A DNA stretch of 64,000 nucleotides, from NCBI GenBank assembly GCA_000004985.1, contig GG738886.1; one strand, written 5' to 3'. Below are positions 7,924-64,000 of the stretch, piece after piece. How positions within the stretch are numbered: position 1 is the first letter of the stretch; every line of letters starts with the position of its first letter. The notes under the pieces were generated by a model. The model did no database searches, was not told the DNA's origin, and saw nothing but the letters and a program-made list of their open reading frames with translations. A program made the translations under genes and the position numbers. This DNA is from Naegleria gruberi (taxonomy: Eukaryota).

Positions 7924-8033
7924 ATTTGTAAATAAATTGAAAAGTAATTTAATTGGCTGTCATATTTCTCATAATCATGATACTGTCATTGAGATACATT
8001 GAAAACAATTTAATTGTAAATATTATTAAAAAA

Positions 8034-10457: not shown

Positions 10458-10883
10458 AAGAATATTGGAATCGAATTGGATATTATGGCCAATAATGAAA
10501 AATAAGAGAATCATAAAATGATAAGAGAATTGAAATGAGAATTTTTTTGGAATATTCAATCTTCTCTTTAAATACAAAGATTCAACATCAAGAATTGTCA
10601 TTACTAAGATATTCATATAATACAATGAACACTCCCAATAAAGTATTCTGAATGAAAATCTACAAGGAATTTCAAATAGAAACCAATTGCTTCATAGGCT
10701 TGTAATGGACTCATTCACTCCGCCTTACTGAAAGTGGTTGTTGGATTCCAATTAGATTCTGTTTAAATGAGCTTAAAATACCTCACCAACAGCACAATCC
10801 AATTCAATTCAGCCTGAAAAAAACAAATTCAAAACGCGTTGTTTGCGCAAACCTCTGTACAAAATACAAAACACACTCGAGAT

Positions 10884-11912: not shown

Positions 11913-12321
11913 ATTATTAACATGTAAATATTGCTTACAATTTGCGTCTTTTTCTTATTGAAATCAGAAATTAGGTTCATTTTAGTGCCAATTACCAATA
12001 AGATCTGATAATCAGATCGAAATCTGAACACTTAATACATTTCTGATCACAGAAAGGGCTGTGAAAGGTTTACCTTCAGTCCAAGCCACCATAATAAGGC
12101 CATCAATTTTTCAACCTTATTTTTACTCTCCGTTTCTCTTGTTGAAACTTCTTAACAATTTTCATAATTACTACCCTATCAGTGCCAAGTCAATATCCAT
12201 TCTTAAACGGGTCCTCCTTTCCATTTTACAGAACTCGTTATTATTAATATTGTACTTTATTTAGAAAGTGGAATTGCTCAATAGGGACGAGGTACATTCA
12301 TTTGCCAAACCCTTAAAAAGA

Positions 12322-14127
12322 ATGGGATCAACAGCATCCACCCCAACTTCCTTCACTTCATCAAATCATAGAGTATCGACAACATCAACAGGAGAAGGAA
12401 GTACCTTAAGTGATCTATTGTCAGACTATAATATCACCACCAAGACAAGTAGAAGTAGTAACAATAATAATAATAGATCTTCATCACTCATATCGATTGA
12501 TTCTGAATCATCACTACTGGGTAATCAATCATCATTGTCAGGTAGTGAATTTCAGGATGGAAAACAGAGCTCTTCCTACTCTTCACTTCACTCCTTTCCT
12601 CCAACAAAGAGAAGAAGTGCAGCAGCCAATCCCTTATTGTTGAATAATAGCACTGGCAATGCCAAATCGTATCCCTTATTACCTGCAGTTGGTACGAGAG
12701 TGTCGACAGCTTCTTCATCGAAACGATCGGCTGCTCTTCATCAATCAGCTAATCAATTGAATTCTAATAAGCCAAGTGATGAATGCTATGGTGCTTCTTC
12801 GATACATTTGCCAACTCTAAATAGCAATTCATCATCAGCGATGAATATGATGAATATTAACAACACAGCAGCCTCAATAGGTACTTCTTCTACAAATAAT
12901 AACAACAATATTAACAGTATGATTAATAATACTGTTTCCACTGATGAAATGTATCACAACCTCCTCACCAAGTCCTCCTCTAAGAATTCCCTCCACAACA
13001 TGATGATGATGAATGCAATGAGCAATGTATCAGCTTCATCAACTTCATCATCACCTACCTCCTCCTCAATAACAATCTATTCAACGCCCAATCAACACTC
13101 CTCTCCTAAGTGGTCCAATACTTCAAAACCTCATCATCATCAACCACGAAATCATCCATCCAATAATTCCCACTCTTACATATCGACGCCTCCAGAGGAT
13201 TCCTTGCTTAATCATCCAATTACGCCAAAAGTTAAATCGCCACAATTCAATTTACAGAACAATTTCTCCAATAGTCCAATAATATCAAATCATTCAACAT
13301 CGTCGAGTAATAATGATCAGAATGATGAAACAGGTTCTATTAAATCGAATTCAACAGCTTCGACACCCTCCTCAGTGTCAAATTCTCCAAGAAGAGGTGT
13401 TTCATTGCTGCAAGTGGCTGAACAAATTCATCCCTTACAAGACTTAATTTCAGTTCCACGATTAACTCAATCAAGATCATTGGGAATACTTGAAGAATAT
13501 TTACCAGTAACATCAAGTACTAGTTCAGGTCAGTTACAATCATTGAATCCTCCTAATAGTTGTAATGGAAGCACATCTGCTCGAAGGAGTAAGAAAACTT
13601 CTACTCCCACACTTAAGGATATTCAAGATATGTGCTACAACTCTGAGAACCTTTCACAACAAATCGATATGGAAGAGGAAAAGAAGAGAAAGCTTGCAGC
13701 TCACAAGAAACGAACTGAATTGGCAGAACCGTATCGAGTTGGCACCACAGCCAACAAAACAAGAGAACCTCGTTATGGAGATACTCTTTCCTCTCAGCAA
13801 GCTAATAGAAGAAACCAATCTCGTTCGTCTTTAAGAAAAGGTCCAGACTCTGATCAATTGAAGTGTGAATTGACCAATTCACCAACAGGACTTGATGCAA
13901 TCCTCTTGAATTCCTCCAGAACTCTCACCAACTTTGGTAATGAAGCTGTTGCCATTTATGTGACATGCCCAACATGTGCACCTGAAATTAAAACACCAGC
14001 CAAGAGTATTGCTAAGGAAAAGAAGAGAAGAGTCTTAATGTTGCACCAGAAACATTCGGAGAGAAAGAACAATCAACATCAGCAGACGAGGAGATCTCAT
14101 TCGGTGATTGGAATTGTTCATCATTGA
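12322..14127 (+). CDS. Ser/Asn-rich low-complexity protein beginning MGSTAST (MGxxxS motif)
   Basis: ORF 12268..14127. The in-frame ATG at 12322 follows AAAAGA. It contains poly-N, poly-S and poly-M tracts. The C-terminal basic region reads KEKKRRVLMLHQKH. Confidence 0.45.
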   Translation: MGSTASTPTSFTSSNHRVSTTSTGEGSTLSDLLSDYNITTKTSRSSNNNNNRSSSLISIDSESSLLGNQSSLSGSEFQDGKQSSSYSSLHSFPPTKRRSAAANPLLLNNSTGNAKSYPLLPAVGTRVSTASSSKRSAALHQSANQLNSNKPSDECYGASSIHLPTLNSNSSSAMNMMNINNTAASIGTSSTNNNNNINSMINNTVSTDEMYHNLLTKSSSKNSLHNMMMMNAMSNVSASSTSSSPTSSSITIYSTPNQHSSPKWSNTSKPHHHQPRNHPSNNSHSYISTPPEDSLLNHPITPKVKSPQFNLQNNFSNSPIISNHSTSSSNNDQNDETGSIKSNSTASTPSSVSNSPRRGVSLLQVAEQIHPLQDLISVPRLTQSRSLGILEEYLPVTSSTSSGQLQSLNPPNSCNGSTSARRSKKTSTPTLKDIQDMCYNSENLSQQIDMEEEKKRKLAAHKKRTELAEPYRVGTTANKTREPRYGDTLSSQQANRRNQSRSSLRKGPDSDQLKCELTNSPTGLDAILLNSSRTLTNFGNEAVAIYVTCPTCAPEIKTPAKSIAKEKKRRVLMLHQKHSERKNNQHQQTRRSHSVIGIVHH

Positions 14128-26760: not shown

Positions 26761-26833
26761 GGGGTCTTGGCGCAGTCGGTAGCGCGTAGGTCTCATAATC
26801 CTAAGGTCGTGAGTTCGATCCTCACAGACCCCA
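26761..26833 (+). tRNA. tRNA-Met (anticodon CAU), elongator type
   Basis: 73-nt cloverleaf. Acceptor stem GGGGTCT/AGACCCC with discriminator A. D stem GCGC/GCGC. Anticodon loop CTCATAA has CAT at positions 34-36 with U33 and A37. T arm GTGAG-TTCGATC-CTCAC. The G1:C72 pair argues for elongator rather than initiator. A T5 run directly downstream acts as a Pol III terminator. Confidence 0.85.
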
Positions 26834-27323: not shown

Positions 27324-28960
27324 ATGATTCAACGTGAAAGTGAACAAGATTTTGCAATTTCTTCATCATTGACAACAACAACAACAGGAAAAAGACTACT
27401 ATTGAACCATACAACAGATGCATCAACATTAATTAATTCTGATGATTCGGAAGGTGTTTGTTGTGATGTTTCCGAGTCTTTTATGGAAAATGAAGAAGAA
27501 TTTAGTTGCATGAAAGAGGAGGAGGATGAAGAATTTGCTTGGGATAAACAAGTTGATGAAGAAATTGAAGTGGAGAAGGAGGAGAAGGGAAAGTTGGGAT
27601 ATTATGATTTTTGGAGGTCGATTGGTTCTCCGAAATATGTGGTGGCTCCGATGGTGGATCAGAGTGAAATGGGTATGTTTTGATGATGGAGTTTTTTGTG
27701 TAATTATTTAACAAATTGATTGGAATTGGGTGTGAAATTGGTGGAATTGACGTTGAATTGTGGAATTTTGAATGGAAATTGATGGAAATTTGATGGAATT
27801 AATAACAATTTGATTGAATTTGATTGGAAATTAATGAAAATTGTGGAAATTCTGTGTAAATTTGTGTAAATTTTATAGCATTTCGATTGTTATCAAAGGA
27901 ATATGGAGCTACACTTGCCTATACACCCATGTTTCATGGCATGTATTTTGCATACCATAAGAAATATAGAGCTAGATTTTATCAATTTAATCCTGATTTG
28001 GAAGGACCAGTTTTTGCTCAATTCTGCACTAATGATCCAGAGACTTTTGTTCAATGTGGAAAACGTGTTTGGGATTTGAGTAAACAGAAAATTAGCGCCA
28101 TAGATTTGAATTTGGGGTGAGTATTCAATGAATTTCAATGGAATTTTACCAAAAATGTAATTAATATTTTGGATTTTAATGAAATATTCGAAAGATGTCC
28201 ACAAAGAATTGCCAGAAGAGGAAGATACGGATCATTCCTTATGGAAGATTTACAAACTGTTCATTCAATCATCAACAAGGCCCATTTGGAATTACCAATG
28301 CCAGTCACTGCAAAAATTAGAATTTTCGAAGATTTGGAATTGACCATGAATTATGTCAAGACAGTAGTTGATGCTGGTGCTCAGGTGTTATGTGTTCACG
28401 GAAGGACAAGAGAACAGAAAGGAGCCAATCAAAATTATGCTGATTGGACTGTCATTCGAGCCATCAGAGAACAATTTCCACAAATTCCAATGATTGCCAA
28501 TGGAAATATTCGTACATTCCAGGACGTGCAAGATTGTCTGGAATATACTCGAGTGGATGCAGTCATGAGTGGTGAAGGCCTCTTAGAAAATCCAGCTCTA
28601 TTCAATGGAGGTCAATTCGTCCATCCACTCGACATTTCAGACAAGTATGTCAATATTTGTAAAACTCATTTCCCACCAGATCACAACAATATTAAGAGAC
28701 ATTTATTTAGAATTTTGGATAAATACATCCCAGAAGATAGAAGTGACCTAAGAGGCATACTAGGAAAGGCCTCACTATGGGAACATTACAGAGAATTTGT
28801 GGATTATGCAAGGAAAATTGAAAATGAATTTGATTTTAAGGAATTGGAATTTGAACCATCGATTTGTGTAGTGACAGATCCAGAAAATCATCCAATTGTG
28901 AAGAAACCATTGAGAAAGAAGGATGTTGAGACGGATAGTGGAGCTGCTGATGAGGAATAA
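27324..28960 (+). CDS. DUS1L: tRNA-dihydrouridine synthase (Dus1-like) with an acidic N-terminal extension. Three exons: 27324..27672, 27879..28116 and 28195..28960
   Basis: The spliced protein reads ...[36 protein letters not shown]...[20 protein letters not shown]...CVHGRTREQKG...ANGNI... It matches human DUS1L almost motif for motif ([62 protein letters not shown]). Donors are GTATGT at 27673 and GTGAGT at 28117. Acceptors are TATAG|C and AAAG|A. CDS length is 1353 nt, in frame. Confidence 0.85.
27713..27870 (+). repeat. Degenerate short tandem repeat (core TGGAAATT/TGGAATTG, period about 8-12) inside intron 1 of the Dus1-like gene
   Basis: Read directly from the sequence: ttgattggaattgggtgtgaaattggtggaattgacgttgaattgtggaattttgaatggaaattgatggaaatttgatggaattaat...tgtggaaattctgtgtaaatttgtgtaaatttt. 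Confidence 0.6.
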
Positions 28961-44729: not shown

Positions 44730-45143
44730 ATGTCCACTACTACAATTGAAGTCCCACAAGCATTCGGATGGGTCTTGCTTATGGCTGTTGCTCATGCCTT
44801 TGAACTTTTTGTATTTGGAGGAGTTGTCGGAAGCTATAGAAAGAAGCACAATGTCAAGTATCCTGATGTTACTGGACCTGAGGAATTTAATCGTGCCATG
44901 AGAGTACATTACAATGCATTGGAAGGTGCTCCATTCTTCTTTGTTACCTTATTAATTTGTGGATTTTATTGGGCTGAATTAGCTGCCCTTGCTGGTTTCA
45001 TTTACATTGTTGGTAGAGCTATTTATTGTGTGGGTTATCTTAAGAGTGTTGAAGGTAGAACTACTGGAGCAATTATTTGTCATTTGGCCGAATTGATGTT
45101 GTTGATTGGTTCAATTGTTTTCATCTTTAAAATGATTGTGTAA
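44730..45143 (+). CDS. MAPEG-family membrane protein (microsomal glutathione S-transferase 3-like)
   Basis: A 137-aa protein with 3-4 TM helices. The segment RVHYNALEGAPFFFVTLLICGFYWAELAALAGFIYIVGRAIYCVGY matches MGST3 ([46 protein letters not shown]). Confidence 0.8.
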   Translation: MSTTTIEVPQAFGWVLLMAVAHAFELFVFGGVVGSYRKKHNVKYPDVTGPEEFNRAMRVHYNALEGAPFFFVTLLICGFYWAELAALAGFIYIVGRAIYCVGYLKSVEGRTTGAIICHLAELMLLIGSIVFIFKMIV

Positions 45144-45228
45144 ATATACAAGCGAGCTCAATGATAAAATTCATTTTCTTTTAAATTCGTATACTTTTGT
45201 TTATTATTAGTGGACTAAGAATTGCATT

Positions 45229-46454
45229 CTATTGGAAGTTTAATACAATGGTTAAATCACATAATCGTTTAGCTAGTCTTGTTTGTTGAAGTTTCCTTGC
45301 AAATTGGTCCAGTTTGGTATTCCTCTTTCTTGTCCGAGCAAGTAATTTCATTTCTCTTTTAGTATTTCCAATAATTTCTTCCGTTTTCATAGATTTCAGT
45401 ATTGTGAAATCCGAAAATATTGTATCATTTAATTTGTAAACTGGTGTAATATCCCAATCTCTAAACTCATCAAAATAGGGATGTAGAAGAGCTTGAGACA
45501 CTGTCATTCGATTATTTGGATTGAATTGTAAAAGGTTTTCCAATAAATCCAACTCATTACTATCCAAATAGGAGAATAAACTAGCTATCTGTCTCTTCTT
45601 TGGCTCACTTCCAATTACATTTTGAATGCAATCCTTAATCATTTCTGGTTTCGAAGAAATAAGTCCAATCTCTTCATCTGTGGGCATTCCTAAAATTTCA
45701 ATCATAGTAATGATCATATCAATAGTACTATTACTCCTTAACAATGGTTTTCGTAAAATAAGCTCAGCAAGTAGTAATCCAACACAGAACATGTCCATTT
45801 TGGCAGTGCACGAAAAATTAGTAGAAAATAACTCTTCAGGACTTCGATGAGGATTATTCCAAAGATACACTGTAACGAAAGTATCTCCTTCCCTTTGCCA
45901 ATTAAGAAACCCTTGCAGTGTAATTTCGCATTCAGTATTGACCATAATATTGAATGGCCTGATTCCTAAATGCACAATTCCATTCACATGTAAAATTCTC
46001 AATCCCACCAATAGCTGAAAAATTATATATTTTCTATGAATTAATTCCAAAGATAAACTCCTCAACACGGTATGAATATCAAAGAATTCAACATAAGTGC
46101 TCATAATAATCAGATCTTTTCCGATAACTTTCAACCTGCTTCCTAAATTCAAAGCTTTACAATCGGAATTATTTACACTCAAATTAATCATCAACATGGC
46201 ACTCCTACAAATCAGCAAATGGTAGGGATGTTCATCCTCCTCGGTTATTTCCTTCTCATCAAACAAATTACAATATTGCTTGATAAATAATTTATTCTTC
46301 CCTCTGAACCCTTTATAACATTTCAAATACTTTTTTGAGAATTATAATTCATTCCAATTCGTTTTTCCAATCATGATGAACCTACACTTTTGTCGGTTAT
46401 TTTTTCGAGTGAATGAAAGGATTTCTCCAGGTAGCTCAAGCTATCTTGATTCAT
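45229..46454 (-). CDS. MAPK/CDK-like pseudokinase with degenerate catalytic motifs. Two exons: 46454..46386 and 46329..45229
   Basis: The C-lobe is MAPK-like (ILGMPTDEEIGLISS..., NPNNRMTVSQALLHPYF). The catalytic loop reads HLGIRPFN instead of HRDLKPxN, there is no DFG, and there is no Gly-rich loop. Exon 1 (MNQDSLSYLEKSFHSLEKITDKS) ends AGT|GTAGGT. A 56-bp intron ends AAAAAG, giving a phase-0 join to YLKCYKGF... Confidence 0.5.
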
Positions 46455-46501
46455 TTTTTTTAAATTTTAAGGAATCCAGTTGAAAATTATTCTAAATAAG
46501 A

Positions 46502-48468
46502 TTATTTCATTAGAGAATCAATGCATTCTTTGAGAACTAATTTGTGGATTGGCTTTGTGAGTAGTTGATCAAAGAGTGGTGATTTCTCTATCAATACATC
46601 TCCTGTCAACGCTACAACCTTAATATCTCCTTGATGTCTATTTCTAAGAATTTTGGTTGCTTCAACTCCATCTAGAACTGGCATATTCTATAAAGAAATA
46701 TATTATTTTCTTTTAATTTAAAAGAAACTTACCAAATCTGTAATAATAAGCTTGTGCCTTCCCTTATCAAATAGTTCAATTAATTCTTTTCCGTCATTGG
46801 CAGCATCTACAGAATAACCAAGACTTTCAATAAGTTTTGTAATGACTCTCCTGTTCACAGAATTGTCATCAGCAATTAGAATTTCAGCTTTCGAGTTGCT
46901 TGCCTTATTTTGACAGCAAGTTGAAAAGAGACGAATATAATTTTCTTGAATGGCTAGTTGTCTCTTGATGGAAGGATCAATTTCGTGTAAAGATTCGCTA
47001 CTATTCTTACTTCTCTCTAATTTGCATTGTACAATTTCCAAAGGAAGAATTACAGTGAATTCTGCTCCACAATTTTCATCAGATTCCAATGTAATATCTC
47101 CTCTCATGGCTTGAACATTGTGTTTTACAGTTGAAAGTCCTAATCCACTCCTTTTTAAAGGATTAAAAAATGTTTAAGCTACATCTATACGTACCCAGGA
47201 ATGATTGACTGATTCAAATTATGTAACTGTGCAAAAGGTTCAAATATTTTGGCTTGTTTTGATTTTGGAATGCCAATTCCGTTATCTTTCACTTTGAAAA
47301 TGATATCTCTTTCAATAACTCCATTCACCTGTCGTTCATCTCCTTGGACAAAGCATTCCAAATCGATGGAATCTCCAATTTTTGATGCCTTTACGCCATT
47401 GGTCATAAGATTTGATATTACTTGATGTATTCTAGTTTGATTAGCTCTCACAAAGAGGTCTTTCGCTTGTTCATCAATTGAGACGTTCACATTGACTTGA
47501 AATTGTTTCGAATAACTCTTAATGATATTTCCCATCATTTTCACACAGTTATTCAAACTAAATATTTTGAAAAACTTGGTAGCCTCTGAAGATTTATCAT
47601 CTGACTTCTTTTCATGTTCAATTTTCACAAGTGTCAGAACATCCTCAATAAGATTGAGTAAAATTCCATCCGAGGAGGCAATTGTCTCAACTAACTCTCT
47701 TTGATATTCTGTTAGATTTGTCTCTCTCAACAATTCAACACTTCCCAAACTACTCAAACAAGGAGATCTAAACTCATGACTGATATGGCGAATAAAAACT
47801 TCCTTACTTGACAAGGCCATTTCTAACTCCTTTGCTGTTTGTTCCAATTTTGTTATTTTTGATTGGAGAGCTGAGGATGTTGACAATACATAATAGCTCA
47901 ATAAATAAATACACAAAGCAGTTGCCAAATTCTCGAATATTAACTCTATCGAATTCGAAAAGATCAAACTATGAACTATTGTTCCACAATATAAGAAAAA
48001 TGTTACAAAGAATGGAGCCAACGTATAATGCAATGAAGTCATCGTGTTTGATGACATGAGTATCAAAATATACATTGGAGAAAGGAGAGCCCGATTATCT
48101 GCCACCAAGAAGTACCTAAAACAAAACAAGAGCAATGAAACAGTCATTCTAACCTTTTCCTCTGCCTCTGTAGATCTCACAAGGCCCACTCCAAGCATGG
48201 AACGAATAAATTTTCCATTCACTATAACTCCAAATATAATACTACTCGTCATGATGATTAAATGTTGCCATCCCTTACAAAATGAATAAGCAATCAGAAG
48301 GGCATACTCCATTATTAGTACTTTTAAAATTACGTTATCCTTCATAGGAAGCGTAAGTACATGTTTAAAGAAGGGTCTTAGTCTCGGATGTAAACTATCA
48401 TATATTGCTTGATCCTCCAAATCCAAGGCAAATCCTCTCAAGGGATCCACTACTAATTTTCCCACCAT
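46502..48468 (-). CDS. Hybrid histidine kinase: N-terminal TM region, HisKA, HATPase_c, and a C-terminal receiver domain. Three exons: 48468..47195, 47150..46733 and 46687..46502
   Basis: H box ISHEFRSPC. G1 motif KVKDNGIGIP. G2 is reconstituted across intron 1 ([14 protein letters not shown]), with a GTACGT donor and a 44-bp intron. Receiver motifs ILIADDNSVNRR...[17 protein letters not shown]...LTKP are joined across a 45-bp GTAAGT intron. CDS length is 1878 nt, in frame (625 aa). Confidence 0.8.
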
Positions 48469-49011
48469 AATATTTATCTACAGTTCGTTGTGTTGTTGTT
48501 TGTAAAAAAATTCTCTGCACAGGCAAACTTGTGTGATGAGGAGGTTTTTTTGTTCTCAAGCAAGCAGTAAAGTTCTTGATATTGTTGGTGGGGTGGTGAC
48601 ATGTTGTGAAGAGAGAGGGAGTTAATGAGTAAGAACTGAACATGATGAGCTCTAAACCTTAATAAGGACATGGATGGGAGATAAAATACAGAGGTCCAGA
48701 TCCTCAGGAATTGAAAGATAAAAAGGTGGCCAATAAGATGTACTGCAATGGATAACACTATTAAAGTTAAATATTTTACAACACTTCCATTTGGTCTAGC
48801 TTTCCTTTATGTAAACAAATACAGAATTGCCATTAAATATTAACCCAGGAAAACTTCACATTTACTGTACATTTTTCCATTCTTGTTGGAGGTGGCGAGG
48901 AAATGAAGCTTATCGACTGTGAATCTGATTGGTTTGGTGAATAAGGTTTCGAGCATTTTCTTTCGTTTCAATAGATCTTTCTGTTGAGTAACATATTAAA
49001 TAATGACAAAA

Positions 49012-49599
49012 TTAAGAGTTTACCCTGATTTTGTAATGTAAACTTACAGTTTTAACATAGGAAATTGAAATATGAGGAACATATTCATGATTCTCTACAA
49101 TATTAAAACACTCTACTATTAAATCATGCAATTGAATCAATAATTCATCTTTCCTCTCATCTCCAATCCAAACTTTAGGTTTCATTACAATAATTGAATT
49201 AATTGTATGTTCGAAAATATCCAACTCATCAAGTTCAATATCAAATGGTTGTATATCATGCTCCTTTAACAGTTGTTTCAACTTTCCTTTCGCCACACTG
49301 AATCCTGCCTGAGCAACGAAAGGGTAAGCACTGAAATAAAATCCGAAACAGTTATAACTCATCTAGATCTGTTGAAAAACTACATACACATTGATGTGTG
49401 CTGGCCAACAGGATTTATTTCCCTCATAGTCCAACACTTCATGTTCGGGATGGTGAGGAAATAATTGTGGCCACAAATCGAGTGGTGGAATAATAGTACA
49501 AGCAGTGCTGACAGTTGTGTAAGTAGAAGAACTTGTTGTTGGTGCCTCGTCAGAAGAAGAAGAATTATCAGATGATGATGCTTTTTGTTGCTTTTTCAT
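49012..49599 (-). CDS. 2H-phosphoesterase / cyclic-phosphodiesterase-like protein interrupted by an in-frame TAG at 49365..49363
   Basis: Two H-x-[ST]-x-type motifs sit in hydrophobic context: CWPAHINVYVV and YVPHISISYV, about 105 aa apart. This matches plant CPDase (PHVTV...PHLSLLY). The two ORF-track pieces are in the same frame, separated only by ATC TAG ATG. This is either a disrupted gene or an unresolved feature. Confidence 0.35.
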
Positions 49600-49738
49600 T
49601 GTTGTTGGTGATGGTGATGAATTGTTTTTTTCTTGCTGTTTGTTTAATGCTACTGGACGATTTTGAACTTGATGAAAATAGTTTCAATTTCAAAGTTGAA
49701 ACACAATTTTATGTAATTAATTGACTCTGCTAAAATGT

Positions 49739-50721
49739 CTAATACTGATTATATTTAAACATAATGTAAAGTACCAAGGCACTTTGAAACCAATTCAGAA
49801 AAGTTCCCTCCGTAATGGTTCTATTCTGTTTGAGCTCTGCCAGAACAGAACCGACATCTAGAACAATCTGATTACTACTTGCTAATGAGGCGGCAATTGA
49901 ATCATCCTCGAATGGATTTTCCAAATCTTCATCTCCTTCATCCAATACATCCTTTATAATTAAAATGTCTTGACCTAGTCCTCGTTCGCCCATTACTTCT
50001 CTCAAATGTGTCAATAATTTATCGAATTGACTTCTTGACATTGTATAGCAACTTTCCTCGACGTTAAAAGTTTTTGCATATCTATAGAACACATATCTTG
50101 AGATCCAATTATCTGTTTCATCAATTGATAATTTAACTTCATGAGGTTCAACATATTCCAGTTCAGAATCAAAATCTGCATATAAATCTCCACTCTTTTC
50201 ACATTCTACCAAATCACTCTTCAATCTATCAATTTCTATCAATCCTTTATCCATCAATTCATTAATTTTAAGAATGGTGTCAACACAACAAGCCACAATA
50301 TTCCGTTGATGAAGTGATTGTTTGAAATTATTACAATGTACAGTATTTACAAGTTTTTTCTTCTTTATAGAAGTTTCCTTCTTCTTTTGCTTCTCCTCCG
50401 ATGAGGAATCATAATTCAATGCAGGAGGACCCTGATACAAATGATTAAAACTTTCTTCTTATCATTTGCATCATCCTTTTCCTCATCCTCCTCGGCTACC
50501 TGATTAGAGATTTGATTCCTCTCAAACAGCACTGATCCATTCAATATAAGTCTATCAATGATATTTAAAATTGATTGTCGTTGCTTTAAAAGGGTATCCT
50601 GATCAAGCATTGATAGAGTATCAGCTCCACCACCCATCAAATAGTCATCACGATAAGTCCTCCTATGATTGTTATTATTATTTAGGAAGAGACAGAGTCC
50701 ATCATCATAATCGGACAACAT
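49739..50721 (-). CDS. Hypothetical acidic protein. Two ORF pieces overlap in different frames across 50416..50440
   Basis: The upstream piece ends ...DDANDKKKVLIICIRVLLH*. The downstream piece begins at a TTG, not an ATG. A 20-nt GTTTTAATCATTTGTATCAG segment would restore frame if removed, but it is too short for confidence. An indel is equally possible. Confidence 0.3.
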
Positions 50722-53078
50722 TTTCCAGCATATTAATAAATTAAATTGTTGTTATTATTATTTGTATTATTACTATATTACTATTATTGCTAATATATTA
50801 AATACTACTAGTATAATTATTGTTGTTGTATGAAGATGATGTTAAAGAGTTGAAGTGAAACTGTCTTTTTTCAACACCAATAGTGATAGGCAATGAATGT
50901 TGACAATTTTTTTTCAATTCGGAAAGTTTGTTTAATGATGGTGATTGGATTTATTTGTATTGGTTGAGGTTTGATGGGAGTTGGACAATCGGAAATAGTG
51001 TAGGGCTTTGGCCTCTTTACATTCGATAGGTCCAAACAGAATAATAATTATTATCAGGGGGGAACAATGTTGATGTCCGCGTGTTACTGGAAAATAAAAT
51101 AAATAAAATTATGGGTCAAAAAACTACTACCTAACAGCTGATTTTTAAAAAATATTACTGCACTCTTTTTTGGTTGATAAAAGTAGTCATCGAATACTGT
51201 GGTATTATTTACAATAGTGGTATTATTACATTTAATATAGATTGAGGATATGATACAAGCCATCATCTTGTAGTTACACTCAATTTTTTGAACAATTTTA
51301 ATGGTTATTAATGTAGTACAAAAGAGGAGTGTAGTTGTTAGTTTTGATGGAGAGGAATTTTGACTTGATGTTGACAGTCAAGATTAAAACCATTGTAACG
51401 TAATAAATATATAGTTTAAGGATACCATTGTTTCGGAATCAGTGACACACTATGTAAGTGTTCGTATCATGTCTATTTGTTAAGTATAATCGTGTTTTGA
51501 TTGTTTGTGAAGGCAAATATGGTATCCCTTTATTTATATTGATGATTTTCTCTTATAAAAACCATCTCCTATAATCAAATAGCTCATTCTAGATATATGT
51601 AGATTTCAAATGCATAAGGTTCACTATAACAGTAGAATACATTGCTTTACGTGAATGCTGTGATTTTTAATGTTTTATGTGCACTAGTAAATTAGTTCTA
51701 TCTTCAAACGAATGACAGTTCAAAAATTGTATCTATTTTTTGGTGAAATTTTTGGAATAGGTAGTCAAAACACTCATACATACCGTATGAGTATTATGAC
51801 TGTATGATAATTAGAGAAGTGATACAAAACCGTGATGAGTGCAAACTGTAGAAATTTCAAGAGATGAGTTAATCGTGCAACCAGATTAAGAACTTAACTA
51901 AATTAGAACATTTTTTAAACCAGTAAAAATTAAGAGAAATCTCTCTACCAACTTTAGACAAGCTCATTTCTGATAATTAAGAAGATAGACCATTCAAGAT
52001 TTATAGAAAACGTAGTAATACATACACTCTCCAGAATTTGAGGAGATGAAGCTTTGGTACGACCGTGCAACATATGAACATGTTGTTAGAAAGTTTAGAA
52101 TGTTATATCTTTTTGTATACACGGTAATTTCCCTTTGTCTTTTTACAGTAAATTGCACGAAATGTGATCATGAAGGAGCTGTCTATTCATCAAATAAAAA
52201 CATGTATTTATTAATTCCGAGCACAAAGTCTGGGACTTTTGGTCAGTAACACTACTTTCAGGCCATTTTTGATCACTATGTTCTCCCCTGATTATTATTA
52301 AATATTAATTAATTTATTAAATTATTATTATTATTGATTTGTATTTCCAACTTGGAAATTCCAACAATTGTTGGAGAAACAATAATACTATTGAAGAAAG
52401 AAGATGTTATCTGTTGGGTAAATGCATAGCAGAAGAAAGTTTGATTTGATGATTCCGTAATTTAGTCCTGTTTGTTTATTATCTTGTACTTCAATAATGA
52501 AGAAAATCCAATCTCCAAGATTCACCACATTTTGAACAATCTAATTGGCAGTTTTGTCATCAAGATTGATAAAAATTTCAAACAATAAATTTACTATTCT
52601 ACTATTTTGATGAATATCCAAAGGTGATGTACAGTCAACATCAATATTTTCTGTGTTGAATTGATGAAGAAAATCAGTAATGATTTTGATGAGCCACTCT
52701 CCAATTCCAAATACTTCAAGTACAAAGGAGCTGATTATCAGCTCATAAAGTTATGAAATTCTCAGAATTTCCGATGCACTCAAAGACACTTCAACACACA
52801 CCAAGCCAATTACCGTTTTGCTTGTTTGAATTTTAATATTTTTAAAAATTCAAACTTAAAACAACATCATGAGGAATCAATCAATTGGTGTTGTTTGAAG
52901 GCGGCTGCATTATAGAATCTTTTTACAGTACAAATGGTGATATCTCTAGAAAACTTTTGCTTGACAGGTGCTGATTTCTTCACTAGAAAAGCAATATCTA
53001 AGTTTTACTTCTAACGGAGCCTCTATTTAATTTAGATTAACTGAAAAAAACAATCAATTTCCATCATTTAATTATTTA

Positions 53079-56000
53079 ATGATGATCAAAACGACAGAGT
53101 TGAGATCGATATTAGTATCCGCATTATTATTCTTCTTCTTGTTAATCATAGTATTTTGTGGATCGATATTTGGGTTGAGTGGATTTACTTTCGATCAGGA
53201 TGCATACAACAAGATTTGGAATGATGAAACGGAAATTTGGTTTGGTCAATCGACAGCTCTTACAGGTCAAACTAAAGAGTGAGTAATCTTTTCTCCAATT
53301 ATTATAATGATGTAAAGACTAGGATATCCAATGATGACAGGAGTTCAGGCAGCCTTTAAAGAAATCAATGAAAATTCTGGTGGAGTTTGGGGAGGTAAAA
53401 AACTGAGGTTAATTACATTGGATGATGGTTATGAGCCAGCTAGAACTGTAAATAATACGATTCAGCTCATTAATAATAACACAATATTTGGATTGATTGG
53501 ATATATGGGGACAGGTACTTCGCAAGCTGCATTTCCATATCTTACTGAATCAAAACTTCCATTTATTGGTGCATTCACGGGAGGATTGTTTTTGAGAACA
53601 CCTTTTGTTTCTAATATTGTGAATATTAGAGCTAGTTATCAAGACGAAACTGTAGCTATGGTAGAATATTTAGTTACAGTAAAAATGGTGAGGAGAATTG
53701 CAATCTTTTATCAGAATGATGCATTCGGCATGTCAGGGGTTGATGGTTCTAGTTTGGCATTGACGGCTCTTGGAATGAGTTTAGTTTCAAGAGGTTCTTA
53801 TGAAAGAAATACTATTGTTGTCGCGAAGGCAGTTTCAGATATTGTTGCTGGAAATCCACAGGCAATTATCTGCATGTCAACATACAAACCAACATTGGAA
53901 TTTATCAATACAGTCAAGAATAGGACAGATTTTGACCCAAACATTGTTTTCATGACTGGCTCTTTTATTGGTTCTAATATTTTACCATACAGAGATAGTG
54001 TTGTCATTACTCAGGTATTACCTCCACCAACCAACACAAAATACCCAATTGTTCTAGCCTATCAGAGAGCTATGAAAGCATCCAATCCAAATTTCGTGCC
54101 TTCCTATGTGGAATTGGAAGGATACATTGCTGGAAAGATGGCAGCAAATATATTGACTCAAAGAGTTTCTGGAGATTTGACACGCAGTAATTTTCTTCAA
54201 CTTGTCTATTCCACTAGTACCTATATTATTGATAATCAAGTTATTGGACCGTACAAGCAATGTAGCTCTTCTAGATCCTTGCATTACTTTTTTGATGATC
54301 CTCAAAATCAAGATGCCTTTCTCTATCCAGTTTTACAACCACGTACAAGATTGATACCACGAAAAATTGAATCAACATTTGTTGCGCCTTGCTCTTGTAA
54401 TCAAGGTTTGAGATCTATTTGGAAAACTTCTCAAAATGCTGATAGTTCATTTAGTGAAATTTCAGATCCAATGGTTTGGGATACTACTAGTACTACTAAT
54501 TATACCTGCTTCTATGATCCAACAAAGACTCTCCCACCAATTGTATTTGGACACATATCATCTGGAGATAAGTATGATGAAGATTTTCTAGTTGGAGTGT
54601 TATTAGCATTCAACGAAAAAAACAATCAAAAAGGTATACGTGGAAGCGTGCTAAGAATTCTCACAAAAACCCCATCCAATAGTTCTGCTTCTGCCCTTAT
54701 TGATACAGTTAATTTGTTGAAAAATGATTTTAATGTACTTGGAATTTTGGGTGGATTTTTACCAAGTTCTAGTTATGCTCAATTCGTAGATCAGTTTAAA
54801 ACTCAATTACCTAACACATTGTTTCTATCGCCTTCCACATCATATGACTCTCCAACATTGAGAAGTGTATTTTCTCCAAATATTATTCATATTGGATTAT
54901 CTATTCGTGAAAAGTTGGCCACCTTTTTCGATTTTGAAATGAATGCAAATGGGCATTCCAGATTTTCTGTAGTATATGGTAAATCCACTGAAGGGGCAGC
55001 AGATTGTAAAGAGTTCAAGAACCAATTGAGCCAATTTGGATTAACTGTTGAGAGTGAATATGAACATTCATCATCTGTTACAGATTACAAGTTAGTCACA
55101 CAAGCACTTGTTTCAAATGATGGTAACCCTCAATCTGTTGTTGTTCTACTTCCTGAAAATATATCCTCATTCTCTTATTTGAGTACTGTAATCAAGGGTA
55201 TTGTGAATATTGGAAAGAGAGATGACTTGTCAATATTCTTTTTGTACTTTAAATATACATCTTGGGTGGCAGATGTTTTTAACTTGATGGCTAGTCTTAA
55301 TACCAAAAATAATGTATATCTTATTCAAAGATATCCTCATGTTGTGGACACTCAATTACCTTTAGTTGCAGCTTACAATAATTTGTTCAGCAAGTATTAT
55401 TCTTCTTCTGTTTCTACAACTGGATCTTTAGAAGGTTTTTTGGCTGCAAGCTTTTTAATTGAAGTTTTGGAGAATATTTCTCCATCTGCAGATATTAATG
55501 GACCAAGTACAATTTTCACAATTTACCAAACGCAACAATTTTTGAAATATTCCATTCCATTTGGTAATTTCATTAGTAATTCTTGCAATTTGGGCATGAG
55601 AACAACCTATTTGTACAAGCTGGACGGATCGACCTTTACAAATGTCAAAATTCAATCATTTGACAAGACTAAATGTGGTCTTTCAGAAGATATTTTTTCC
55701 TCTGAAAGTTCCATTGAAAAACAACTTTTATTTGGTAGATTACTACCCGTGGAAGATGCTTCACTTCCATATGATGATTTTAGTGTTGGTTTGAATGCAT
55801 TATTCACATCTTATAACACTAAGGGAACACTGGATACTGCAACTTTGCACTTAAAAACTCTGTACTATTCAAGCAGAGAGGAAATGACCAAGAAGGCAGA
55901 GGAGCTCATTCTAAAATACAAAATTTTTGGATTTTTAGGATCTAGACTAGTCTATGATGTTACTGAACTCAAGGCTATAATGGAAAATTACAAGATACCA

Positions 56001-57752
56001 ATTATAGGTCCACTTTCTTCTCAGTTAGCTTTGAGAGAACCTTACTCAAGGTTTGTGGTCAATTTAAGACCTAGCATTGTTGAGGAATCTGTAGTTTTGA
56101 CAAGATATCTGACCTCTGTTATTACCTCAAGAAAACCAACAGTTCTCATTCTCAGCGGATCATCTTACTATTGGCAGCAAAATAGTAATAATGTTGTTTC
56201 ATTTTATTCGAAGAGTATTGAAGGAGTTTCGATTTCATCAACTAGTATTTCGTCAGTCTCTTCCACTTCTGGTAGAGCTGTAGAAGGTTCTAAGCCAGAC
56301 TTGGTTCTTTTGTTGGCCTCTCCAACAGAAGTTTCACAATTTCTAACCAACTATCCCACTTTTTCCTCTCTAATTGGAATACCTTCAGAAATTTCATCTA
56401 TTTCTAGTTTCAAAACACTCTTAAATGATATACCTTCTTCAGTAATAATTAGTCCTCAATTTTTAGAAAGGTATGATAAGGCTTCATCAACAAACTTTAT
56501 GGCCAGAGATTTCTTGATAGACATGGCCAAATACTCAACCTCATCAAATACCTCCACACTAATGTATGAAGCTTATGCAGTGGGTTATATGACAACAACT
56601 GTTCTCAAGTTCATGTCCCAAGCCAATATGGATTATAGCAGAGAAAAATTTGTTTCCACATTTTTCGAGAGGTCTGTATTTGAATTAGGAAATAATGAAT
56701 TTGGACCGTATGGCGATGAGTGCTCCATACAATCCACTTTTGTAGTGAAAGGCTCTTGTGAATCTGTTTCTGTTTGTAATTGTAGTCAAGGCGTGAGAGC
56801 TCTTCAAATCAATTCTCTAACCTCATCCTCGGATAGTATTTTATATGAAATGAATTTCAAAACATGTGGATTGCAAGCTATTGAACCACTTCTTTCAGAT
56901 GGAGCCATTGCTGGTGTTGCTGTTGGGGGTACACTAGCTTTTTTAGGTACTCTATTTGTTATACTAGTACTGATTTTCTGTGCAAGAAATAGATCCTCAG
57001 TTAAGAATGCTCCCAAGTCAGGAAATATCACTTGTGCATTTACGGATGTTCAAAGCAGTACAAAACTTTGGCAAAATAATGAAAAGGCTATGAGAAATGC
57101 ATTAGAAATTCATGACAAGATTATGAGGAAAAATCTTGAATTATTCAGAGGTTATGAGGTCAAGACAAATGGTGATAGTTTCTTTGTTGCCTTTAAGGAT
57201 CCATTTGATGCTGTTTTATGGTCTTTAACAGTTCAATTAGATTTATTGAATGCGAATTGGCCTTCAGAATTATATCACGAATATGATTGCAGACAGGAAT
57301 GGGATGAACGAATCAAGAAACCTTATTGGAGTGGATTGAGAGTGAGAATTGGACTTCATTACGGAAAGGGAGATTGCAAATGGGATAAAACCATGAAACG
57401 CTTCGACTATTTTGGAACAGTTGTAAACAAGTCAGCACGTATTGAAGCATTAGCACATGGAGGACAAGTTTTGATCAGTGAAGAATTATTGGAAGTAACT
57501 AAAGACCTCTTCCAAGATGTTAAGAAAATAGCCAGTTGTGATGAATTTCCAGCCTATCAAACCACTACAAAAGAGGAGAAGAAACTAGCTGTGGACGACA
57601 AAACCTCAACAACAGCTAGTCTCAAACATCAAAATTCTCTCTCTAGTGTATTGGGTAGGAGAAGAACTAAAATTCTAATTGATAGAACATTCACAGCCGC
57701 TGAGTTGGGAGTTTATCCATTGAAGGGACTATCTGAATCGAGCAGACTTTTC
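53079..57752 (+). CDS. Receptor-type class III adenylate/guanylate cyclase: signal peptide, two tandem periplasmic-binding-protein type 1 (ANF-receptor-like) ectodomains, one TM segment, and a cyclase catalytic domain. Two exons: 53079..53278 and 53318..57752. The 3' end is lost in a 50-N gap
   Basis: Exon 1 (MMIKTTELRSILVSALLFFFLLIIVFCGSIFG...GQSTALTGQTK) carries the start of a PBP1 fold. It ends GA|GTGAGT, with a 39-bp intron, and continues ELGYPMMTGVQAAFKEINENSGGVWGGKKLRLITLDDGYEP. A second PBP1-like unit begins near FGFLGSRLV... The TM segment is IAGVAVGGTLAFLGTLFVILVLIF. Cyclase motifs are FTDVQSSTKLW, KTNGDSFFVAFKD, RIGLHYG, FGTVVNKSARIEALAHGGQVLISE and ELGVYPLKGL. Confidence 0.8.
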
Positions 57753-57802
57753 NNNNNNNNNNNNNNNNNNNNNNNNNNNNNNNNNNNNNNNNNNNNNNNN
57801 NN
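57753..57802. other. Assembly gap (50 N) immediately after the cyclase catalytic domain
   Basis: A run of n characters in the sequence. Confidence 1.
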
Positions 57803-58976
57803 TTAGTATTACAGAACTTTGACAACCTTCAAACTCAATCAAATTAGCAAATAATCTATTTATATAAATTGAAACCCTGCTATGTGATGTATACATCAAT
57901 GTTACAAATAATTGTTTGTTGGATATATTTCTCTATGTAATATATTGAGTTTGATTGAATACTGTCAATAACAACACTATTAAACTGTTAAAAGGGACCT
58001 ACATTTTATTTGATAATATCATTTATCTATGTATTATATCGACAAATACCTGGTATCATGATTATATTTTCTATATTTTCAATTTGGGAAATGTCGCAAT
58101 GTCAGTACTTAATTGAAATATTGCCATAATACCAATTATTGATTATATATCATGAAACTGATATTATAGACTTTATTTGATGTATATATGAATATATGAT
58201 TGAAATATTTCAATTTTGACTTTTCTTAATGACATGGGTAGTTCACTAAGGTAGTCACTTTGCCATATGACAACTATCTAAGATGATATTGAAATCATTC
58301 TAAAATTGATATTATGAGAGTATTTGATGATTACAACATGATGAAAATGAAAAGGAATTAATTATTACAATATTTGACATGTAAGAATGTTACCTTTGAT
58401 CAATTGGATAAGTAGCTTGACAGACATTCCAATTATATAGATATTGATTTCTATTACTCAGATACTTTACAAATATCATTTATAAGAGTAGTGGTATATT
58501 CTGTTTTTTTATACTTCTTGATATTGACTTGTCATAATATCATGAGTAATTGCTTACATGGTTAAATGACATGTATACTGAATGATGTCCAAATGATATG
58601 AAATTGATAGGAACCTCTTTATATGATGTTTATAACATATTGTATCAATTTGGTATTGAATCTCATTGATCTTAGGGAACTCTCCTATTAAATTTTGTAA
58701 AATCAATATTTACCTTCCTATGGCACCATTTCTAATTATTATGATATGAAATTGAATTCTACATCATTATATATCATCTAAATCATTATGGTAAAGTTTC
58801 AATAGTGGTTCTTTTTCAAGATTTCATCCTTTTCATCATAGTTGACTATGTTTGATTGAGTTAAGAAATCTGTAAACATGAAAGTTAAAATAAATTTGAT
58901 ATTCGATGTTTACTCATCAAGTGGAACATTTTCATATTAGGATTCAATATGTTTTGATGAGAAACTCAAAAGTTAT

Positions 58977-59364
58977 GGGGTTTGGGGTTGGGTTTGGGTT
59001 TGGGTTTGGGTTTGGGTTTGGGTTTGGGTTTGGGTTTGGGTTTGGGTTTGGGTTTGGGTTTGGGTTTGGGTTTGGGTTTGGGTTTGGGTTTGGGTTTGGG
59101 TTTGGGTTTGGGTTTGGGTTTGGGTTTGGGTTTGGGTTTGGGTTTGGGTTTGGGTTTGGGTTTGGGTTTGGGTTTGGGTTTGGGTTTGGGTTTGGGTTTG
59201 GGTTTGGGTTTGGGTTTGGGTTTGGGTTGGGTTTGGGTTTGGGTTTGGGTTTGGGTTTGGGTTTGGGTTTGGGTCTGGGTTTGGGTTTGGGTTTGGGTTT
59301 GGGTTTGGAATTGGGTTTGGGTTTGGGTTTGGGTTTGGGTTTGGGTTTGGGTTTGGGTTTGGGT
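58977..59364 (+). repeat. Telomere-like tandem hexamer array (TTTGGG)n, about 64 units. The G-rich strand runs 5' to 3' toward the window end and abuts an N gap
   Basis: Direct reading gives ggggtttggggttgggtttgggtttggg... with a few variant units (GGGTTG, GGGTCT, GGAATT). It is preceded by about 1.1 kb of AT-rich ORF-free sequence (57823..58976). Confidence 0.8.
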
Positions 59365-62300
59365 NNNNNNNNNNNNNNNNNNNNNNNNNNNNNNNNNNNN
59401 NNNNNNNNNNNNNNNNNNNNNNNNNNNNNNNNNNNNNNNNNNNNNNNNNNNNNNNNNNNNNNNNNNNNNNNNNNNNNNNNNNNNNNNNNNNNNNNNNNNN
59501 NNNNNNNNNNNNNNNNNNNNNNNNNNNNNNNNNNNNNNNNNNNNNNNNNNNNNNNNNNNNNNNNNNNNNNNNNNNNNNNNNNNNNNNNNNNNNNNNNNNN
59601 NNNNNNNNNNNNNNNNNNNNNNNNNNNNNNNNNNNNNNNNNNNNNNNNNNNNNNNNNNNNNNNNNNNNNNNNNNNNNNNNNNNNNNNNNNNNNNNNNNNN
59701 NNNNNNNNNNNNNNNNNNNNNNNNNNNNNNNNNNNNNNNNNNNNNNNNNNNNNNNNNNNNNNNNNNNNNNNNNNNNNNNNNNNNNNNNNNNNNNNNNNNN
59801 NNNNNNNNNNNNNNNNNNNNNNNNNNNNNNNNNNNNNNNNNNNNNNNNNNNNNNNNNNNNNNNNNNNNNNNNNNNNNNNNNNNNNNNNNNNNNNNNNNNN
59901 NNNNNNNNNNNNNNNNNNNNNNNNNNNNNNNNNNNNNNNNNNNNNNNNNNNNNNNNNNNNNNNNNNNNNNNNNNNNNNNNNNNNNNNNNNNNNNNNNNNN
60001 NNNNNNNNNNNNNNNNNNNNNNNNNNNNNNNNNNNNNNNNNNNNNNNNNNNNNNNNNNNNNNNNNNNNNNNNNNNNNNNNNNNNNNNNNNNNNNNNNNNN
60101 NNNNNNNNNNNNNNNNNNNNNNNNNNNNNNNNNNNNNNNNNNNNNNNNNNNNNNNNNNNNNNNNNNNNNNNNNNNNNNNNNNNNNNNNNNNNNNNNNNNN
60201 NNNNNNNNNNNNNNNNNNNNNNNNNNNNNNNNNNNNNNNNNNNNNNNNNNNNNNNNNNNNNNNNNNNNNNNNNNNNNNNNNNNNNNNNNNNNNNNNNNNN
60301 NNNNNNNNNNNNNNNNNNNNNNNNNNNNNNNNNNNNNNNNNNNNNNNNNNNNNNNNNNNNNNNNNNNNNNNNNNNNNNNNNNNNNNNNNNNNNNNNNNNN
60401 NNNNNNNNNNNNNNNNNNNNNNNNNNNNNNNNNNNNNNNNNNNNNNNNNNNNNNNNNNNNNNNNNNNNNNNNNNNNNNNNNNNNNNNNNNNNNNNNNNNN
60501 NNNNNNNNNNNNNNNNNNNNNNNNNNNNNNNNNNNNNNNNNNNNNNNNNNNNNNNNNNNNNNNNNNNNNNNNNNNNNNNNNNNNNNNNNNNNNNNNNNNN
60601 NNNNNNNNNNNNNNNNNNNNNNNNNNNNNNNNNNNNNNNNNNNNNNNNNNNNNNNNNNNNNNNNNNNNNNNNNNNNNNNNNNNNNNNNNNNNNNNNNNNN
60701 NNNNNNNNNNNNNNNNNNNNNNNNNNNNNNNNNNNNNNNNNNNNNNNNNNNNNNNNNNNNNNNNNNNNNNNNNNNNNNNNNNNNNNNNNNNNNNNNNNNN
60801 NNNNNNNNNNNNNNNNNNNNNNNNNNNNNNNNNNNNNNNNNNNNNNNNNNNNNNNNNNNNNNNNNNNNNNNNNNNNNNNNNNNNNNNNNNNNNNNNNNNN
60901 NNNNNNNNNNNNNNNNNNNNNNNNNNNNNNNNNNNNNNNNNNNNNNNNNNNNNNNNNNNNNNNNNNNNNNNNNNNNNNNNNNNNNNNNNNNNNNNNNNNN
61001 NNNNNNNNNNNNNNNNNNNNNNNNNNNNNNNNNNNNNNNNNNNNNNNNNNNNNNNNNNNNNNNNNNNNNNNNNNNNNNNNNNNNNNNNNNNNNNNNNNNN
61101 NNNNNNNNNNNNNNNNNNNNNNNNNNNNNNNNNNNNNNNNNNNNNNNNNNNNNNNNNNNNNNNNNNNNNNNNNNNNNNNNNNNNNNNNNNNNNNNNNNNN
61201 NNNNNNNNNNNNNNNNNNNNNNNNNNNNNNNNNNNNNNNNNNNNNNNNNNNNNNNNNNNNNNNNNNNNNNNNNNNNNNNNNNNNNNNNNNNNNNNNNNNN
61301 NNNNNNNNNNNNNNNNNNNNNNNNNNNNNNNNNNNNNNNNNNNNNNNNNNNNNNNNNNNNNNNNNNNNNNNNNNNNNNNNNNNNNNNNNNNNNNNNNNNN
61401 NNNNNNNNNNNNNNNNNNNNNNNNNNNNNNNNNNNNNNNNNNNNNNNNNNNNNNNNNNNNNNNNNNNNNNNNNNNNNNNNNNNNNNNNNNNNNNNNNNNN
61501 NNNNNNNNNNNNNNNNNNNNNNNNNNNNNNNNNNNNNNNNNNNNNNNNNNNNNNNNNNNNNNNNNNNNNNNNNNNNNNNNNNNNNNNNNNNNNNNNNNNN
61601 NNNNNNNNNNNNNNNNNNNNNNNNNNNNNNNNNNNNNNNNNNNNNNNNNNNNNNNNNNNNNNNNNNNNNNNNNNNNNNNNNNNNNNNNNNNNNNNNNNNN
61701 NNNNNNNNNNNNNNNNNNNNNNNNNNNNNNNNNNNNNNNNNNNNNNNNNNNNNNNNNNNNNNNNNNNNNNNNNNNNNNNNNNNNNNNNNNNNNNNNNNNN
61801 NNNNNNNNNNNNNNNNNNNNNNNNNNNNNNNNNNNNNNNNNNNNNNNNNNNNNNNNNNNNNNNNNNNNNNNNNNNNNNNNNNNNNNNNNNNNNNNNNNNN
61901 NNNNNNNNNNNNNNNNNNNNNNNNNNNNNNNNNNNNNNNNNNNNNNNNNNNNNNNNNNNNNNNNNNNNNNNNNNNNNNNNNNNNNNNNNNNNNNNNNNNN
62001 NNNNNNNNNNNNNNNNNNNNNNNNNNNNNNNNNNNNNNNNNNNNNNNNNNNNNNNNNNNNNNNNNNNNNNNNNNNNNNNNNNNNNNNNNNNNNNNNNNNN
62101 NNNNNNNNNNNNNNNNNNNNNNNNNNNNNNNNNNNNNNNNNNNNNNNNNNNNNNNNNNNNNNNNNNNNNNNNNNNNNNNNNNNNNNNNNNNNNNNNNNNN
62201 NNNNNNNNNNNNNNNNNNNNNNNNNNNNNNNNNNNNNNNNNNNNNNNNNNNNNNNNNNNNNNNNNNNNNNNNNNNNNNNNNNNNNNNNNNNNNNNNNNNN

Positions 62301-64000
62301 NNNNNNNNNNNNNNNNNNNNNNNNNNNNNNNNNNNNNNNNNNNNNNNNNNNNNNNNNNNNNNNNNNNNNNNNNNNNNNNNNNNNNNNNNNNNNNNNNNNN
62401 NNNNNNNNNNNNNNNNNNNNNNNNNNNNNNNNNNNNNNNNNNNNNNNNNNNNNNNNNNNNNNNNNNNNNNNNNNNNNNNNNNNNNNNNNNNNNNNNNNNN
62501 NNNNNNNNNNNNNNNNNNNNNNNNNNNNNNNNNNNNNNNNNNNNNNNNNNNNNNNNNNNNNNNNNNNNNNNNNNNNNNNNNNNNNNNNNNNNNNNNNNNN
62601 NNNNNNNNNNNNNNNNNNNNNNNNNNNNNNNNNNNNNNNNNNNNNNNNNNNNNNNNNNNNNNNNNNNNNNNNNNNNNNNNNNNNNNNNNNNNNNNNNNNN
62701 NNNNNNNNNNNNNNNNNNNNNNNNNNNNNNNNNNNNNNNNNNNNNNNNNNNNNNNNNNNNNNNNNNNNNNNNNNNNNNNNNNNNNNNNNNNNNNNNNNNN
62801 NNNNNNNNNNNNNNNNNNNNNNNNNNNNNNNNNNNNNNNNNNNNNNNNNNNNNNNNNNNNNNNNNNNNNNNNNNNNNNNNNNNNNNNNNNNNNNNNNNNN
62901 NNNNNNNNNNNNNNNNNNNNNNNNNNNNNNNNNNNNNNNNNNNNNNNNNNNNNNNNNNNNNNNNNNNNNNNNNNNNNNNNNNNNNNNNNNNNNNNNNNNN
63001 NNNNNNNNNNNNNNNNNNNNNNNNNNNNNNNNNNNNNNNNNNNNNNNNNNNNNNNNNNNNNNNNNNNNNNNNNNNNNNNNNNNNNNNNNNNNNNNNNNNN
63101 NNNNNNNNNNNNNNNNNNNNNNNNNNNNNNNNNNNNNNNNNNNNNNNNNNNNNNNNNNNNNNNNNNNNNNNNNNNNNNNNNNNNNNNNNNNNNNNNNNNN
63201 NNNNNNNNNNNNNNNNNNNNNNNNNNNNNNNNNNNNNNNNNNNNNNNNNNNNNNNNNNNNNNNNNNNNNNNNNNNNNNNNNNNNNNNNNNNNNNNNNNNN
63301 NNNNNNNNNNNNNNNNNNNNNNNNNNNNNNNNNNNNNNNNNNNNNNNNNNNNNNNNNNNNNNNNNNNNNNNNNNNNNNNNNNNNNNNNNNNNNNNNNNNN
63401 NNNNNNNNNNNNNNNNNNNNNNNNNNNNNNNNNNNNNNNNNNNNNNNNNNNNNNNNNNNNNNNNNNNNNNNNNNNNNNNNNNNNNNNNNNNNNNNNNNNN
63501 NNNNNNNNNNNNNNNNNNNNNNNNNNNNNNNNNNNNNNNNNNNNNNNNNNNNNNNNNNNNNNNNNNNNNNNNNNNNNNNNNNNNNNNNNNNNNNNNNNNN
63601 NNNNNNNNNNNNNNNNNNNNNNNNNNNNNNNNNNNNNNNNNNNNNNNNNNNNNNNNNNNNNNNNNNNNNNNNNNNNNNNNNNNNNNNNNNNNNNNNNNNN
63701 NNNNNNNNNNNNNNNNNNNNNNNNNNNNNNNNNNNNNNNNNNNNNNNNNNNNNNNNNNNNNNNNNNNNNNNNNNNNNNNNNNNNNNNNNNNNNNNNNNNN
63801 NNNNNNNNNNNNNNNNNNNNNNNNNNNNNNNNNNNNNNNNNNNNNNNNNNNNNNNNNNNNNNNNNNNNNNNNNNNNNNNNNNNNNNNNNNNNNNNNNNNN
63901 NNNNNNNNNNNNNNNNNNNNNNNNNNNNNNNNNNNNNNNNNNNNNNNNNNNNNNNNNNNNNNNNNNNNNNNNNNNNNNNNNNNNNNNNNNNNNNNNNNNN
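59365..64000. other. Assembly gap (N run) to the end of the window
   Basis: A run of n characters. Confidence 1.

Follow-up and report, generated by a model that had tools for sequence, protein, structure and literature searches.

The assembled sequence of this Naegleria gruberi scaffold stops inside a run of TTTGGG hexamers, which raises the question of whether the run is the telomere of a chromosome or a repeat in which the assembly broke off. The window that we analyzed, a stretch of 64,000 nucleotides, has a GC content of 33% and contains standard-code open reading frames (ORFs) of up to 1,050 codons. Four of its proteins match N. gruberi proteins with 100% identity, and all four lie on one scaffold of 358,576 bp. 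One is the cyclase that precedes the array; the other three ORFs match XP_002674093.1, XP_002674096.1, and XP_002674167.1 exactly, on the cyclase scaffold. A ciliate origin for the window DNA, suggested at first by the motif, was rejected because of the long standard-code ORFs and the identity to N. gruberi proteins. A dictyostelid origin, toward which the low GC content and poly-N tracts might point, was also considered; for dictyostelids, TTAGGG and TAAGGG have been published as the repeats, and protein identity decided against this source. Far from the array, positions 27713–27873 hold a degenerate tandem repeat with a period of about 10–21 nt and AAATTGATGG-like units (65–81% matches), located where ORFs overlap on both strands. 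A tRNA-Met gene (anticodon CAT, 26761–26833, + strand) was the sole Rfam or ARAGORN match in the window.

Tandem Repeats Finder identified a period-6 tandem array with the consensus GGGTTT at 58978–59364 (64.7 copies, 97% matches, score 739). Counted from the first G at 58977, the head-to-tail (GGGTTT)n array is 388 bp long (58977–59364) and comprises 65 units. An earlier reading made from the sequence alone had reported about 64 near-perfect TTTGGG units running into N; this count was confirmed to within a unit, and the first N is at position 59365. In the 64-kb window, the repeats form one period-6 tandem array, which closes the called sequence. The dimer TTTGGGTTTGGG occurs 63 times with up to one mismatch, compared with 0.26 expected from dinucleotide-preserving shuffles, and no exact repeat dimer was found outside the array in the window's 59 kb of called sequence. 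The array is thereby a long head-to-tail run of a T/G-rich unit within the 5–8-nt range of the telomere class. Its length of 388 bp is a lower bound fixed by the assembly and is not a telomere length.

The units are not distributed uniformly. At the junction between subtelomere and telomere (58977–58989, + strand), the first unit is GGGGTTT (58977) and the second is GGGGTT (58984). Degenerate proximal units are usual at many such junctions, and these two fit that degeneracy. The array core (58990–59223, + strand) consists of units 3–41, which are 39 perfect GGGTTT hexamers and constitute the longest perfect run. The distal array (59224–59364, + strand) has 20 perfect units and three interrupting variants: a 5-nt GGGTT that has lost one T (unit 42, 59224, + strand), followed by seven perfect units; GGGTCT (unit 50, 59271, + strand), followed by five; and GGAATT (unit 56, 59307, + strand), followed by eight and then by a partial GGGT, the last called bases, which ends at 59364. 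Overall, at least 59 of the 65 units (about 92%) are pure GGGTTT. Four consecutive Gs are found in two units at most, both of them proximal, and only unit 2 has the T2G4 form. Three of the five variant units lie in the distal third of the array; these distal variants could be genuine heterogeneity or Sanger read-end errors, and the two explanations are equally good. This weakens the statement in the sequence-only reading that such variants are typical of arrays synthesised by telomerase. The sequence-only reading had listed the variants as GGGTTG, GGGTCT, and GGAATT. The latter two are present, but the supposed GGGTTG is the 5-nt GGGTT, and the two proximal four-G units had been omitted.

The G-rich strand of the array is the + strand, and the called sequence stops at 59364 on the 3′ side of the array. 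The G-rich strand therefore runs 5′ to 3′ toward the terminal N run, which is the polarity of a telomere, where the end in question is the end of the assembled sequence. The N run (59365–64000) consists of 4,636 N and is either padding past the scaffold end or a scaffold gap. The array is thus flanked by unique sequence proximally and by N only distally. Three observations describe the anatomy: a 388-bp array at the assembled end, a G strand that points outward, and a 1.17-kb AT-rich stretch, with no ORF over 53 codons, that comes before it. Very likely, the assembly has captured here the inner portion of a chromosome telomere of N. gruberi (strain NEG-M, JGI assembly), the terminal position of the array being a property of the assembly. 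The orientation of the G strand and the assignment to a right-arm telomere, both proposed from the sequence alone, agree with these data: the (TTTGGG)n strand is + with the N run on its 3′ side, and the class of the motif, the length and polarity of the array, and its location where the assembled sequence ends all fit.

The stretch that leads up to the array (57803–58976, + strand) measures 1,174 bp and has a GC content of 25.4%, the minimum for that size in the window (the next lowest value is 27.1%). Its stop-free frames do not exceed 53 codons. We found no internal periodicity or repeated element in this stretch (there was no autocorrelation peak, and short repeats were at chance level), and BLAST gave no match between it and the rest of the window or the 124 fetched loci. 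On its proximal side is a scaffold gap of 50 N (57753–57802), a placeholder size, which separates the contig that carries the genes from the telomeric one. Because the flank starts directly after this gap, the array and its flank constitute a separate contig of 1.56 kb, which has no coding sequence to tie the contig itself to Naegleria. The description of about 1.1 kb of gene-free subtelomere is therefore correct with respect to size and coding content, but it left the 50-N gap unmentioned, and this gap is the sole connection between the stretch and any gene. The linkage of the last gene to the telomeric contig is provided by scaffolding and by nothing else.

That last gene encodes a receptor-type class III adenylate/guanylate cyclase (53316–57752, + strand), present as an ORF of 1,479 codons broken by the scaffold gap. 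The predicted protein combines periplasmic-binding-protein/ANF-receptor domains, a transmembrane segment, and a cyclase domain (PF01094, PF13458, PF25493, and PF00211). The ORF is 100% identical to an N. gruberi entry annotated as "predicted protein" (P0001, 1,444 aa) on the scaffold of 358,576 bp. Two homologues from a Logan assembly (L001 and L002, 44–48% identical) extend 45–100 codons past the point where the ORF breaks. Both contain a conserved cyclase C-terminal segment, EIKC.EI..R.YPPLR, which was found on neither side of the 50-N gap; since this segment is missing, the true gap is longer than 50 nt.

The P0001 gene model bridges the gap in a different way. Its exon ends at 57654 (donor GTAGGA), and a last "intron" of 1,187 nt runs over the N gap to an acceptor AG at 58840–58841. 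The "last exon" that follows is 14 nt long (58842–58855, + strand), lies 122 nt proximal to the telomere array, and reads G/TT GAC TAT GTT TGA across the splice junction, which encodes VDYV and a stop codon, such that the protein ends SLSSVL/VDYV. This splice drops 33 in-frame codons (57655–57752) that are conserved in the homologues. The 14-nt exon is an annotation artefact, and it arises from the scaffold gap.

The contig L001 (logan:SRR29240419_893), from a related organism with about 48% protein identity, was compared over positions 206–7623 with window positions 44742–57641. There, the cyclase homologue is followed by homologues of the window genes at 49.8–50.4 kb, 44.7–45.1 kb (MAPEG), and 48.8–49.3 kb. 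These genes are thus downstream of the cyclase in L001, whereas they are upstream of it in the window. The difference stems from a rearrangement close to the end of the chromosome or else from a cluster of paralogues.

The gap and the homologues bear on whether the telomere belongs where the assembly puts it. The 1.56-kb contig could have come from another N. gruberi chromosome end by way of misleading mate pairs, or two telomeric contigs could have been joined across the N run through clones containing the repeat. With nothing more than a 50-N placeholder at the join, misplacement is possible. Moreover, the 45–100 further cyclase codons expected from L001 and L002 are absent after the gap, and in L001 it is other genes, not an end, that come after the cyclase homologue. 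Scaffolders, on the other hand, require several consistent mate pairs, and because the subtelomeric flank is unique, mate-pair links into it would not have been driven by repeats. L001 and L002 may also be paralogues or come from distant species; at 44–48% identity, their gene order says little about this scaffold. We consider a true but misplaced telomere quite improbable.

The motif itself had been assigned to this organism before. Fulneckova et al. (2013, Genome Biol Evol) scanned 143 genome assemblies for arrays of the TnAmGo type and judged them by position and orientation (PMC3622300). For N. gruberi, TTTGGG emerged as the candidate telomere motif, from the same assembly as that used here, and the pattern was rated convincing because of its dominant terminal position with the right orientation (PMC3622300). 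The survey states that terminal position needs experimental proof, and its main text gives no coordinates (PMC3622300). Organism, assembly, motif, and reasoning are the same in the two studies; the present array is one instance of the pattern, and nothing substantive differs. The suggestion in the sequence-only reading that the hexamer may define the telomere repeat of this lineage is thus in accord with the 2013 survey of the same assembly (PMC3622300) and is not new: the present finding is correct but already known. Our literature searches returned no Bal31, terminal restriction fragment, or TRAP data for Naegleria telomeres, and full-text searches yielded no description of Naegleria TERT or telomerase RNA and no later telomere report beyond PMC3622300.

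Metagenome contigs were scanned for (TTTGGG)6, which yielded at least 120 contigs with six or more units (L003–L122). An array was called terminal if no more than 10 nt separated it from a true contig end. Among the matches listed, 91 of the 120 contigs have internal arrays, which are 36–133 bp long and are found mostly in GC-rich contigs (e.g., the Ga0115006 and Ga0209302 sets). In eukaryote-like environmental contigs, (TTTGGG)n is thus a fairly common internal microsatellite, and the motif alone is not diagnostic of a telomere. The other 29 of the 120 listed matches are terminal, with 22 in telomere polarity and 7 in the opposite one (binomial p = 0.008). When the listed terminal arrays were restricted to those with flanks below 42% GC, the ratio was 18 in telomere polarity versus 2 (p = 4e-4). 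In the WGS set JAESGV01, all 13 of the listed arrays are terminal and in telomere polarity (p = 2e-4).

The abundance of internal (TTTGGG)≥6 arrays (91 of 120 contigs among the matches listed) lends some weight to the idea that the N. gruberi array is an interstitial, telomere-like microsatellite. Assembly would have broken off within the repeat, with unique distal sequence concealed by the N run; the window has no called sequence past 59364 that would speak to this directly. The environmental internal arrays, however, reach only 36–133 bp and occur mostly in GC-rich contigs, whereas the array described here is at least 388 bp and includes 39 perfect units. Its polarity is that of a telomere. 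In addition, the survey of the whole assembly found the N. gruberi pattern convincing, dominantly terminal, and in the right orientation (PMC3622300). An interstitial origin is accordingly improbable, and we retain the interpretation as a chromosome end.

Two of the environmental contigs with standard-code genes were examined for their relationship to Naegleria. L077 (VFQO010000557.1, positions 7570–13361) represents the right end of a 38.6-kb metagenome contig with 30.6% GC and long standard-code ORFs, and the contig ends in a (TTTGGG)n array in telomere polarity. The best named match of its Cu-ATPase is from N. fowleri. In a small neighbour-joining tree with thin taxon sampling, the L077 Cu-ATPase, the N. 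fowleri protein, and environmental sequences formed a cluster with a bootstrap support of 100 of 100, which excluded the sequences from plants, fish, Acanthamoeba, archaea, and bacteria. This is a modest hint that TTTGGG may also cap chromosomes in a relative of Naegleria. An ORF of L077 comes as close as about 50 bp to the array, and this end is thus one without a gene-free subtelomere. In L085 (JAESGV010000876.1, positions 1–11509), the (CCCAAA)n end adjoins a gypsy/Ty3-like pol ORF with reverse transcriptase, RNase H, and integrase. Its genes are in the standard genetic code. Past pol lie two PPR genes, and a DYW deaminase domain was found in the one that was scanned. DYW-type PPR genes are known for Naegleria. 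A homologue search with the L085 PPR sequence returned plant PPR proteins only, at 21–25% identity, which is uninformative on taxonomy. Contigs L001 and L002, which carry the cyclase homologues, contain no TTTGGG array. The end of a Willaertia magna contig (L123) was considered as a telomere and rejected, as the contig breaks inside a gene.

Several of the environmental contigs with terminal TTTGGG look ciliate-like, in that genetic code 6 gives them much longer ORFs, and in these the repeat passes straight into unique sequence that is unrelated between contigs. They bring into consideration a contaminant, for example from a ciliate with TTTGGG-containing telomeres, or else a cloning or sequencing artefact. 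The telomeric contig is small and lacks identifying coding sequence, and the macronuclear telomeres of Paramecium contain TTTGGG (PMC13085455, PMC5855555). Four-G units, however, account for no more than 2 of the 65 in the present array, the telomeric contig is scaffolded to Naegleria sequence, and a terminal pattern that extends over the assembly (PMC3622300) could not be produced by a stray contig. Since the array does not resemble Paramecium telomeres and TTTGGG is terminal across the genome in this assembly, contamination is unlikely; we regard this class of explanation as highly improbable.

How such an end would be made can be outlined from what is generally known of TnAmGo-type telomeres. 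Telomerase would extend the 3′ end of the G strand in successive rounds, each copied from a short RNA template that is complementary to about 1.5 repeats, and for the array described here the template would be some permutation of CCCAAACCC. The C-strand would be filled in by lagging-strand synthesis. Capping proteins bound to the double-stranded repeats and to the G overhang would shield the end from repair and compensate for the shortening that comes with replication. Neither a telomerase RNA nor TERT was found in the window, where the Rfam scan returned the tRNA only.

TTTGGG is probably the genuine end repeat that telomerase makes in Naegleria, and perhaps in a wider group of heteroloboseans. 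If so, this would be a non-ciliate lineage with a pure T3G3 telomere, one that arose independently of the Paramecium variant, and the template motif (a permutation of CCCAAACCC) could be used to seek the telomerase RNA of Naegleria. With this array, a probable end of a chromosome can be placed in the draft assembly of N. gruberi, and one end of a scaffold is anchored. The array agrees with the published in silico call that this heterolobosean uses TTTGGG and not the ancestral TTAGGG. The practical value is modest: the motif can serve in telomere-length assays, in completeness checks of long-read assemblies, and in a template-based RNA search. The analysis also exposed the annotation artefact that the gap caused in the last gene. 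The array itself opens no new question.

The closest comparison is with Paramecium, in which both macronuclear and micronuclear telomeres are mixtures of TTGGGG and TTTGGG (PMC13085455, PMC5855555). The TTTGGG hexamers of Paramecium are by-products of misincorporation or stuttering at one template position, and the two hexamers are interspersed (PMC13085455, PMC5855555). The N. gruberi array would share with them telomerase-made TTTGGG hexamers at chromosome ends with the G strand outward. It differs in composition: whereas the Paramecium type (TTKGGG) has TTGGGG and TTTGGG interspersed throughout, the array described here is about 92% pure GGGTTT with its G4 units confined to two proximal positions. 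Since four Gs occur in the first two units only, the array is not of the Paramecium mixed type. The organisms also differ, Naegleria being a heterolobosean with the standard genetic code and Paramecium a ciliate.

TTAGGG has been inferred to be the ancestral repeat of eukaryotes and of Excavata, with motifs such as TTTGGG as secondary replacements (PMC3622300). The N. gruberi repeat resembles this human-type repeat in its 6-nt unit, its three Gs, its T-rich 5′ half, its polarity, and the presumed telomerase mechanism, and it departs from it by one base, an A to T change at position 3. This one-base change implies a different telomerase RNA template. With the TTGGGG repeat of the Tetrahymena type, the N. 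gruberi repeat has in common a hexamer that consists of T and G only, without A (PMC3622300); the two are distinguished by their proportions, T2G4 in the Tetrahymena type versus T3G3 in N. gruberi.
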